Assembly: GCF_057098645.1 (NCBI RefSeq)
Contig: NZ_CM169472.1
DNA length: 64,000 nt
Direction: 5' to 3' (one strand)
In this document: positions 11,207-14,195 of the stretch, one piece after another
How the letters are laid out: every line of letters begins with the position of its first letter
How positions within the stretch are numbered: the first letter of the stretch is position 1
The notes under the pieces: model-generated
Database searches by the model: none
Told to the model about the DNA's origin: nothing
Seen by the model: only the letters and a program-made list of their open reading frames with translations
Position numbers and translations under genes: made by a program

Positions 11207-11341
11207 GGATGGACTCCTATTACAAAGTCGATATAAAAAAACCCTTCCGCGTCGTTAGGCCCGACGAGGAAGGGTTGGATTTGCGAAACACAAGTTTGTG
11301 CTAATTATCGCCTTAAATGGGCGAGGCATCAAGCGAGGTTG

Positions 11342-12073
11342 CTATTTCCGACACGGTGGCGGCGCATAGCCATTGTTATCTGCCGGAAAGGCTTGTCCAG
11401 AGCACGGTGGCAGCGCGTTTTGCGCCTGGCCTTGTAATTCAAAGGCGGCAAAGCCTATTACACCGGTATTACGCACATCGCCTTGCGCCGAATTGGCTGC
11501 GTAGGAATCAGCAACGTTGGCGAACTGAAAAGCCGCTTCGGTATGTTTATCTTTGCGGAATCCTTTAATCGCTAACGAATCTCCGGCATTCACAATATAG
11601 CCGTTGTTATTCAGCGAACCTTGCTTGCCGTTCAGCACATCCAGGCCATCAACCGTAGCAACGATCTCGTAGTTGGTGTTACGACTGTAATTACGGACAT
11701 ATAATTGATAATTCATTCCGACTCTGGCATGGACAATATAGCGTGGTTCATTATTGGATGAATCATAAACACGCGTAATAGGTAGAGAATTAAAATTACC
11801 ATCGCGAATAGCATATTCCAGTTCGTTAATACGAATGCTATAAACGCGGTCGTAGCCGGAAGGAACATTAGTCGAATAACTAATAACGATCATCTCCGCC
11901 GGATCGCGCCAGGCTCGCTCAGCAGATACGCCCTGAACCGTTGAGTGCACATCCCCACCCCAGGCGGTGCCGACATTGCCCGATGCACTGCTATTATACT
12001 GCGCATTACTGGAACAACCGGCCAGCAGCACGATTAATGCCACCAACGCGCTACGTACTTTCCATTTTTTCAT
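11342..12073 (-). CDS. Predicted lipoprotein of unknown function (accessory gene between speB and speA)
   Basis: 243-aa ORF with signal peptide and LLAGCSS lipobox; Asn/Ser/Tyr-rich; no family recognised. Confidence 0.6.
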   Translation of the reverse strand: MKKWKVRSALVALIVLLAGCSSNAQYNSSASGNVGTAWGGDVHSTVQGVSAERAWRDPAEMIVISYSTNVPSGYDRVYSIRINELEYAIRDGNFNSLPITRVYDSSNNEPRYIVHARVGMNYQLYVRNYSRNTNYEIVATVDGLDVLNGKQGSLNNNGYIVNAGDSLAIKGFRKDKHTEAAFQFANVADSYAANSAQGDVRNTGVIGFAAFELQGQAQNALPPCSGQAFPADNNGYAPPPCRK

Positions 12074-12218
12074 AACCGTTCCCTCTGCATTTAATTAATG
12101 CAGCGATTGTAGGGAGATTATTTAATAAGAAAAGCAGCTAAATTATTTTTAAGAATATATAAAAAGAAAGCGGACCGATTTACGTAAATAAATCGACCCG
12201 CCAGCAGAATAATCTTAA

Positions 12219-14195
12219 TTATTCATCTTCAAGATAGGTATAACCGTACAAACCTGCCTCGAACTCTTCAAGGAACTGTTGTTGCAGTTCAGCATCAAGA
12301 TCGGTTTTCTTCACTTGATCACGGAACTGAGTTAACAGCGTTTTCGGATCGAGCTGTACATATTGCAGCATGTCCGCCACGGTATCGCCTTCGTCAGACA
12401 GTTCCACTTCTACACTACCGTCAGGGAAGACGAACACGTCAACCGCTTCGGTATCACCGAACAGGTTGTGCATGTTGCCGAGGATCTCCTGATATGCGCC
12501 GACCATAAAGAAACCGAGCATCGGCGGATTCTCTGGATCGTACTCCGGCATAGGCATTGTCGTGGCAATACCATCACCATCGATATAGTGGTCGATAGCA
12601 CCGTCAGAGTCACAGGTAATATCCAGCAGCACAGCGCGGCGTTCCGGCACTTGATCCAGCCCTTCCAGCGGCAGAACCGGGAACAACTGGTCGATCCCCC
12701 ACGCATCCGGCATCGACTGGAACAGCGAGAAGTTGACGTACATTTTGTCCGCCATACGTTCCTGCAGCTCGTCGATAATCGGACGATGAGCACGGTTTTG
12801 CGGATCCAGCTGCTTTTGCACTTCATGGCACATGCTCAAATAAAGCTGCTCAGCCCATGCACGTTCTTGCAGGCTAAAGGTGCCGGAAGAGTAGCCGATA
12901 TGAATGTCGTGCAGATCCATCTGGCTGTCGTGTAACCATTCACGCAGAGAACGGCGAGTTCCCGGTTCGTGCATCTCCTGCCAGGTTTCCCACATGCTTT
13001 GCAGCGCGCGCGGCGCATCTTCTGCAGGCGCGGTCGGCACCGTGTATTCGTTACGTTCCACGCCGATGATATTAGACACCAGCACGGTGTGATGCGCAGT
13101 CACTGCACGACCCGATTCAGTGATTACCGTCGGATGCGGCAGACTGTTTTCTTCACACGCATCACCAATCGCCCAGATGATGTTGTTGGCATATTCATTG
13201 AGGCCGTAGTTTACCGAACAGTCGGACTGCGAACGAGTACCTTCATAATCCACGCCCAGACCGCCGCCGACGTCGAAGCACTGAATATTGACGCCCAGCT
13301 TGTGCAGTTCCACATAGAAACGCGCCGATTCACGAACGCCTGTGGCGATATCGCGAATATTCGCCATCTGCGAACCGAGGTGGAAGTGCAGTAGTTGCAG
13401 GCTGTCGAGACGCCCGGCTTCACGCAGGGTTTCAACCAGTTGCAGTACCTGAGTCGCAGCCAGGCCGAACTTCGATTTTTCCCCGCCGGAGGACTGCCAT
13501 TTACCCGAGCCCTGCGAAGCCAGACGTGCACGCACGCCCAGACGAGGAACGACATTCAGACGTTCTGCTTCATCCAGCACAATGGCGATTTCTGACATCT
13601 TCTCAATGACCAGATAGACCTTGTGCCCCATCTTCTCGCCAATTAATGCCAGGCGGATATATTCGCGGTCTTTATAACCGTTGCAAACGATGACGCTACG
13701 GGTCATGCCAGCATGTGCCAGCACTGCCATCAACTCGGCTTTGGAACCGGCTTCCAGACCCAGCGGTTCGCCCGAATGAATCAGGGACTCAATCACGCGA
13801 CGGTGCTGGTTAACTTTGATCGGATAAACAAGGAAGTAATCGCCGTTATAGCCGTAGGATTCCCGCGCACGTTTGAACGCGGCGTTAATGGAACGCAAAC
13901 GGTGCTGCAGGATCTGCGGGAAACAGAACAGTGCAGGCAGACGCTGACCCTGTGCTTCACGAGTTTTCACTAACTGCGCGAGATCGACGCGAGCTTCCGG
14001 GACGTCCGGGTCCGGGCACACGCTGATGTGGCCCAGCTCGTTAACGTCATAGTAGTTATTGCCCCACCAGGCAATATTGTAAGTACGCAGCATCTTGCTG
14101 GCTTCCTGGGAGCTCATTGCAACCTCCTGCATGGAGCGTAGTACACCGTGTTCGCCCGCTGACGAAGGCAAACCCATAGACATGTCGTCAGACAT
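12219..14195 (-). CDS. speA: Biosynthetic arginine decarboxylase
   Basis: [25 protein letters not shown]... PLP-dependent decarboxylase, 658 aa from ATG at 14195. Confidence 0.95.

Follow-up and report, generated by a model that had tools for sequence, protein, structure and literature searches.

In Escherichia coli K-12, the genes for biosynthetic arginine decarboxylase (speA) and agmatinase (speB) are nearly adjacent, and the SpeA/SpeB pathway is fully working. The spacer between them in MG1655 measures 137 bp (4799-4935 of the compared MG1655 locus) and has no gene inside it. Here we describe the same interval in a 64,000-nucleotide stretch of contig NZ_CM169472.1 (NCBI RefSeq assembly GCF_057098645.1), referred to below as the window. 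In this window the interval from the speB start codon to the speA stop codon is exactly 1012 bp long (11207-12218) and carries an intact lipoprotein gene. The region of this gene is 100% identical to E. coli O145:H28 RM12761. Two well-described features of bacterial lipoproteins frame the comparison: the lipobox [LVI][ASTVI][GAS]C of proteins processed by the Lgt/LspA/Lnt pathway, and the ‘+2 rule’ of the Lol system, under which lipoproteins without Asp at position +2 are sorted to the outer membrane. Taken as a whole, we consider it likely that the gene encodes an ancestral, vertically inherited lipoprotein of ∼24 kDa that forms its own transcription unit and was lost from K-12; it may act as a binding module.

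AN ANCESTRAL LIPOPROTEIN GENE

The lipoprotein gene is the single substantial open reading frame (ORF) of the speB-speA interval, and it shares its strand with both neighbours (Table 1). Its product begins with MKKWKVRSALVALIVLLAGC followed by SS, a sequence in which a basic n-region and a hydrophobic core lead into an LLAGC lipobox (L-A-G-C) ending at Cys20. This matches the lipobox pattern given above, and Cys20 is invariant across 54 aligned homologues. The +2 and +3 residues are Ser-Ser, so that, with Asp absent at +2, the Lol rule predicts transfer to the outer membrane; the protein is probably anchored there, facing the periplasm. Asn (9.9%), Ser (8.6%) and Tyr (5.8%) are prominent in its composition. 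The C-terminal tail PPCSGQAFPADNNGYAPPPCRK (ending in ALPPCSGQAFPADNNGYAPPPCRK) includes Cys224 and Cys241, a candidate pair for a periplasmic disulfide loop. An initial sequence-only reading of the locus had proposed a lipoprotein gene with an LAGC lipobox, a composition rich in Asn, Ser and Tyr and a Pro- and Cys-containing tail, lying on the strand of speA and speB, and the ORF bears out each of these features.

The full lipoprotein segment is found in 3550 of 5426 complete E. coli genomes, about two-thirds, while 1868 (∼34%) have the short K-12-type spacer and a handful have other configurations, such as an IS1 insertion. The initial description of the gene as accessory and as missing from K-12, with speB and speA nearly adjacent there, thus stands, and the presence/absence survey that it called for gives these frequencies. 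Carriers include E. coli O157:H7, O145:H28 and CFT073, and DNA identity of the region among E. coli carriers is 97.5-100%. A truncated variant of 174 residues is also common in assemblies.

Outside E. coli, the order speA-gene-speB recurs in nine enterobacterial genera. It is seen in cryptic Escherichia lineages and E. whittamii, in several species of Citrobacter, in Kluyvera, in Klebsiella (K. aerogenes and K. spallanzanii), and in Intestinirhabdus, Phytobacter, Kosakonia, Entomohabitans and an Enterobacter sp. The gene is next to speB in E. albertii, on a contig that ends before speA, and a protein on record from E. fergusonii falls in the same 90% cluster. Salmonella retains the speA-gene linkage. 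As a separate observation on that genus, the loci compared from Salmonella enterica (5886-10732) carry an islet directly after the lipoprotein gene, in place of speB, that encodes GntR regulator, mannitol-dehydrogenase-family, zinc-ADH and Ldh_2 proteins.

The encoded protein keeps a length of 240-244 residues across the sampled enterobacterial genera. It diverges more quickly than the products of the strongly conserved flanking genes, with 74% identity between E. coli and Salmonella, and it is under constraint: the ratio of nonsynonymous to synonymous divergence (dN/dS) is 0.04-0.08 within Escherichia, where dS is unsaturated (0.30-0.59, against 0.24-0.42 for speA). Between genera, dN is 0.18-0.31 and dS is saturated, with dN/dS of ∼0.13 or less. 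Because a word-indexed search returned 286 homologues, Cys20 is invariant and dN/dS is this low, the ORF is, on sequence grounds, a genuine gene rather than a chance ORF. The synteny shared across genera, together with a dS like that of speA, argues that the gene is ancestral to the Enterobacteriaceae at the speA-speB site and vertically inherited, and that the K-12 allele is a deletion. The initial proposal of an insertion between speB and speA is largely refuted by this same evidence, namely the common gene order in nine genera, the speA-gene linkage of Salmonella and a dS equal to that of the flanking speA.

Table 1. Coordinates of genes, protein segments and predicted signals at the speB-speA locus (positions in the window unless given as residues)
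Feature	Position	Strand	Basis and remarks
speB (agmatinase)	10286-11206	-	ORF list and identical RefSeq locus; downstream neighbour
speB leader hairpin with U7 run, CCCTTCCTCGTCGGGCCTAACGACGCGGAAGGG-U7	11235-11276	-	Predicted speB leader; ∼30 nt before speB ATG
Segment (935 bp) replaced by 60 bp in K-12-type genomes	11284-12218		Junction analysis; net difference 875 bp
Sigma-70-like promoter, TTGATG, 17 nt spacer, GATAAT	11304-11332	-	8 nt past lipoprotein stop; promoter scan, 9/12 matches
Lipoprotein coding sequence (CDS), 243 aa, intact	11342-12073	-	ORF list; RefSeq calls identical protein WP_000758914.1 ‘lipoprotein’
Signal peptide and lipobox	aa 1-20 (12014-12073)	-	Sequence
Ser/Asn tether, 12 residues	aa 21-32		
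Beta-sandwich	aa 33-213		Predicted structure
Pro-rich tail with Cys224/Cys241	aa 214-243		
Near-palindrome CTGCATT-AATTA-AATGCAG	12085-12103	-	Between -10-like box and Shine-Dalgarno sequence
-10-like hexamer TACAAT	12106-12111	-	38 nt upstream of lipoprotein ATG; 32% GC spacer
Intrinsic-terminator-like hairpin, then UUUCUUUUU	12169-12202	-	Directly after speA stop; terminator scan, 15 pairs
speA (biosynthetic arginine decarboxylase)	12219-14195	-	ORF list; identical RefSeq locus annotated speA, 658 aa; upstream neighbour

PREDICTED TRANSCRIPTION UNITS

The signals between speA and speB point to three units in series: speA with its terminator, the lipoprotein promoter with its CDS, and the speB promoter with its leader hairpin. 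The first of these signals, the terminator-like hairpin behind speA, has a folding energy of -19.8 kcal/mol (z -4.4), with none of 200 shuffles as stable. In Salmonella, Citrobacter, Klebsiella, Kluyvera, Phytobacter and Kosakonia the stem is maintained through compensatory substitutions. Upstream of the lipoprotein gene, six genera have TACAAT, TACTAT, TATTAT or TATACT at the alignment position of the -10-like box, and the gene is predicted to have its own promoter with a weak -35. The near-palindrome beyond this box is a possible hairpin of the 5′ untranslated region or a possible operator, although its fold z is only -1.35 and its sequence is not conserved in other genera.

Past the lipoprotein stop codon, the sigma-70-like element is the probable speB promoter and appears to be retained in K-12: TTGAAg-N17-GATAAT is kept in Escherichia, Citrobacter, Kluyvera, Entomohabitans, an Enterobacter sp. 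and the K-12 spacer. The hairpin of the predicted speB leader folds at -26.9 kcal/mol (z -3.6). Its sequence hardly varies among Escherichia, Citrobacter, Kluyvera, Klebsiella, Entomohabitans and an Enterobacter sp.; K. spallanzanii shows one compensatory pair, and different hairpins occupy its position in Intestinirhabdus, Phytobacter and Kosakonia. Rfam gave only a sub-threshold chance match in the speB-speA interval (P31, 25.8 bits; gathering score 40). Being terminator- or attenuator-like, the leader hairpin would also end lipoprotein transcripts. Agmatine induction of speB has been reported; a terminator within the speB leader suggests attenuation, which is possibly linked to this induction.

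Given the predicted speA terminator, the -10-like box of the lipoprotein gene, and the promoter and U-run hairpin of speB, the gene is probably its own transcription unit and not a cistron of a speAB operon. Predicted terminators and promoters thus intervene on both sides of a gene that had at first been taken as probably co-transcribed with speA and speB. Farther downstream, the loiP-speB spacer holds three tandem REP/BIME-like palindromic units (9976-10259; 113-bp period, 86-93% identical), and these repeats give rise to several spurious entries in the ORF list.

PREDICTED FOLD AND FAMILY

An AlphaFold2 model built on the 54-sequence alignment has a mean predicted local distance difference test score (pLDDT) of 84.3. 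Residues 33-213 are modelled as an all-beta sandwich with pLDDT >90, and the signal peptide, the tether and the tail (∼60) have low confidence. Across the 54 homologues, 24 columns are invariant. Known structures offered no counterpart: Foldseek returned no match for the model in the PDB at E≤0.001, and a sequence-profile search of the PDB with the family returned none at E≤10. MATH/TRAF-like eight-stranded beta-sandwiches, including the USP7 N-terminal domain, the SPOP MATH domain and TRAF C-domains, were considered and rejected, as they gave no significant structural superposition.

The family was also unfamiliar at first sight, and the database search that had been suggested for it leaves it so. 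The lipoprotein has no match in Pfam (0 at E≤1), NCBIfam, PADLOC or PHROGs, and distant and permuted members returned only signal-peptide noise and sub-threshold matches to DUF7918 in these collections. We found no literature on the family, whose members are named just ‘hypothetical’, ‘lipoprotein’ or ‘membrane protein’ at source. It is nonetheless large. Clustered at 50% identity, its representatives number 4203 at E≤1e-3 and 3274 at E≤1e-10. Members occur in Providencia, Proteus, Gilliamella, Neisseria, Kingella, Paracoccus and Pseudomonas aeruginosa PA7, as well as in Burkholderia, Ralstonia, Variovorax and others.

The branch to which the window protein belongs is marked by LGTxWGE near the mature N-terminus, YEIVATVDGLDVLNG, GFRKS..VAAFRF, SYAAN…N.GVIG.A.FEL and the tail motif AFPxD…YAPPPxY. 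A second branch, most of whose members lack a signal peptide, is circularly permuted, so that the core precedes a GTxYGE module and the tail (examples at 2489-3214 and 2438-3229 of two compared loci). Some of its members are secreted bacterial proteins, and signal-less copies are found in jumbo or large rhizobial phages, namely Agrobacterium jumbo phage Atu_ph07, Sinorhizobium phage Phosso and Rhizobium phage RHph_I1_18. The cores of the two branches align with an hhalign probability of 99.9% (E 1e-32, 129 columns). Few polar residues are common to both (T36, N128, D142, Y191 and N202).

Of 86 permuted-branch members, 27 match DUF7918 (PF25534) weakly at E≤0.1. The best E-value among them is 1.9e-5 and the best score 25.3 bits; the gathering score is 27, and none of the members inspected reaches it. 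None of the 54 lipoprotein-branch members matches at E≤10. DUF7918 is itself without known function, and we found no literature on it. It appears to be the nearest named relative of the lipoprotein, in which membership is not established.

CANDIDATE FUNCTIONS

The mature protein may be a tethered, non-enzymatic envelope module that binds protein or glycan and would be dispensable in the laboratory. We hold this reading tentatively. It is suggested because the two branches share so few conserved polar residues, because the domain tolerates circular permutation and different compartments (being signal-less in jumbo phages), and because it has no fixed gene partner, the SpeA/SpeB pathway being intact in K-12 without the gene. 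To our knowledge, no polyamine phenotype has followed from its loss in K-12.

Gene neighbourhoods were surveyed by all-vs-all clustering of neighbouring ORFs at 80 loci, and no neighbour family is common across genera. An apparent neighbour cluster of 45 loci was rejected, as it consists largely of antisense ORFs overlapping the family gene. SpeA and SpeB are neighbours only at the Enterobacteriaceae loci and at none of the other 60+. Linkage to spe genes thus does not follow the family wherever it occurs; its neighbours are genus-specific, for example metJ and an outer-membrane protein (OMP) gene in Providencia, mltG/yceG in Neisseria, and DUF1161 and ynfC-like genes in Trabulsiella. In the Comamonadaceae (∼24 loci in five genus-level groups, among them Variovorax, Acidovorax, Comamonas and Xenophilus; 5001-6187 in example loci), the family gene lies inside the histidine operon in the order hisG-hisD-[gene]-[115-aa secreted protein]-hisC-hisB-hisH-hisA, with gaps of 38 and 5 bp. 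One distant lipoprotein homologue is two genes away from an arginase/agmatinase-family gene. The histidine-operon and arginase-adjacent cases weakly support a metabolic link.

Such a link could make the lipoprotein a third member of the arginine-to-putrescine module, for instance an envelope binder of agmatine or putrescine, a sensor or an export helper, expressed by read-through between speA and speB. Its place between these genes is held across the Enterobacteriaceae, and the tight packing of the Comamonadaceae homologues between hisD and hisC and the single arginase-adjacent homologue point the same way. However, a conserved predicted terminator follows speA and separate promoters are predicted, the neighbours are unrelated in Providencia, Proteus, Gilliamella, Neisseria, Kingella, Paracoccus, Pseudomonas, Burkholderia, Ralstonia and Trabulsiella, and K-12 keeps a working SpeA/SpeB pathway without the gene. 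A polyamine role is therefore unlikely in our estimate.

We regard it as similarly improbable that the protein is an orphan periplasmic immunity or inhibitor lipoprotein directed against an incoming hydrolase or toxin, such as an effector of the type VI secretion system (T6SS) or a lysozyme-type enzyme. A small, dispensable beta domain with a predicted outer-membrane tether would suit such a role, as would its repeated loss (K-12, the truncated variants and the IS1 insertion) and its faster evolution than that of its neighbours. The two-Cys secreted protein of 115 residues encoded next to the Comamonadaceae homologues also has a sub-threshold match to Rap1a, a T6SS immunity family (23.4 bits against a cutoff of 27.7). 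Nonetheless, no examined lineage has an adjacent effector gene, PADLOC and known inhibitor structures gave no match, and signal-less phage homologues misfit a periplasmic immunity role. The gene is under strong purifying selection and is not hypervariable within E. coli. Neither sequence or fold similarity nor an adjacent cognate effector places the protein among Rap1a/Tai4 or lysozyme-inhibitor families.

A broader proposal, which we put forward as a long shot, is that the core defines an unrecognised, circularly permutable beta-sandwich superfamily of proteobacterial outer-membrane lipoproteins, secreted proteins, cytoplasmic jumbo-phage proteins and, distantly, DUF7918, that senses or handles cationic nitrogen compounds at the envelope. 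If so, a genuine role with these compounds would explain its placements between speA and speB in Enterobacteriaceae, between hisD and hisC in Comamonadaceae and, in one distant bacterium, near a gene of the arginase family; that role would have been overlooked because K-12 deleted the gene.

THE K-12 ALLELE AND THE ORIGIN OF THE GENE

The two E. coli alleles are 100% identical over the 77 bp adjoining speB and diverge from a sharp breakpoint at 11283/11284. Pairwise comparison of the 60-bp K-12 spacer with the window segment found no significant similarity, as 88 of 1000 shuffles score as high. In the multi-genus alignment, the 60 bp line up colinearly with the sequence immediately past the lipoprotein stop codon and share its promoter. 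Aligned in this way, K-12 would have suffered a net loss of ∼875 bp, from just after the speA stop codon to ∼8 nt before the speB promoter. The deletion would have taken the speA terminator and the lipoprotein promoter and CDS, and spared the speB promoter and leader.

The K-12 speB promoter segment (compared with 11284-11340 of the window) is far more diverged than the adjoining 77 bp. This divergence and the sharp breakpoint suggest that the short K-12-type allele is old or was imported via recombination. E. coli EV36 mutant 1a is without the K-12-type spacer. EV36, which we take to be a K-12/K1 hybrid, would fit arrival of its speA region together with the donor's nearby capsule region.

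The same alleles might be read in the opposite direction, as the horizontal gain of an accessory gene between speB and speA by strains other than K-12. K-12 and 34% of the complete E. coli genomes do, after all, lack the gene, the switch at the breakpoint is abrupt, from 100% identity to unalignable alleles, and base composition differs from that of the flanks: the lipoprotein gene has a GC content of 48.8% (47% at third codon positions, GC3), below the 54-56% (GC3 61-65%) of speA and speB. This gap is moderate and is the sole mark of foreign origin. Against it stand the fixed position in nine enterobacterial genera and in E. whittamii and the cryptic Escherichia lineages, with the partial linkages of E. 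albertii and Salmonella, and a dS equal to that of the flanking speA. A 5′ terminator and a 3′ promoter are co-conserved with the gene, and its flanks carry no mobility genes, tRNA or repeats in the ORF list or the RefSeq annotation. A horizontally acquired islet was accordingly rejected, and we consider insertion very improbable. Least credible of all is a decaying or non-functional ORF persisting by chance, which would accord with loss or disruption in some lineages and with its going unmentioned in O157:H7 proteome files, and which is ruled out by the selection analysis (dN/dS 0.04-0.08), the maintained length, the 24 invariant columns and the confident fold prediction.

Several points weigh against the reading of an ancestral, separately transcribed lipoprotein lost from K-12. 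Only the multi-genus alignment relates the K-12 60 bp to the speB promoter segment, the pairwise comparison being non-significant. The -35 of the lipoprotein gene is poor, and its predicted promoter was missed by a consensus scan; read-through from speA is possible, the terminator and promoters being predictions. The spe-adjacent position, held throughout the Enterobacteriaceae, could still reflect function. Finally, the lipoprotein was not found in the supplements of one O157:H7 proteome.

IMPLICATIONS AND RELATION TO KNOWN SYSTEMS

The locus exposes a blind spot of K-12. What appears to be an ancestral gene under purifying selection, carried by roughly two in three complete E. coli genomes and also by Salmonella, Citrobacter and Klebsiella, is without a gene name, a mutant collection entry or a family model owing to its loss from the reference strain. 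The deletion as reconstructed also removed the speA terminator, so that speA in K-12 abuts the speB promoter and leader, and the operon behaviour of speA and speB in K-12 may not apply to most enteric bacteria. The product is best described as a conserved hypothetical lipoprotein that is mechanistically unsurprising so far and was overlooked owing to the K-12 deletion. The unannotated family, which counts >4000 clusters at 50% identity, includes permuted and phage proteins and has a confidently predicted but unmatched fold, is a reasonable target for structural and functional work.

Among named families, the likeness to DUF7918 lies in motif style (...YIEG..GSEY.I...N....VVSVDG..V..G....), and the lipoprotein core is linked to it only transitively, via the permuted branch. 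Two parts of the lipoprotein fall outside the matched region, a GTxWGE module at the N-terminus and the tail AFPxD...YAPPP. The lipoprotein also resembles the y-gene class of small, uncharacterised enterobacterial outer-membrane lipoproteins, with which it shares a lipobox, Ser at +2, a short tether, one small globular domain, a predicted monocistronic layout and dispensability in the laboratory. It differs from that class in being missing from K-12, and hence in having neither a y-name nor a Keio mutant, and in belonging to a family whose size, circular permutants and phage members set it apart.

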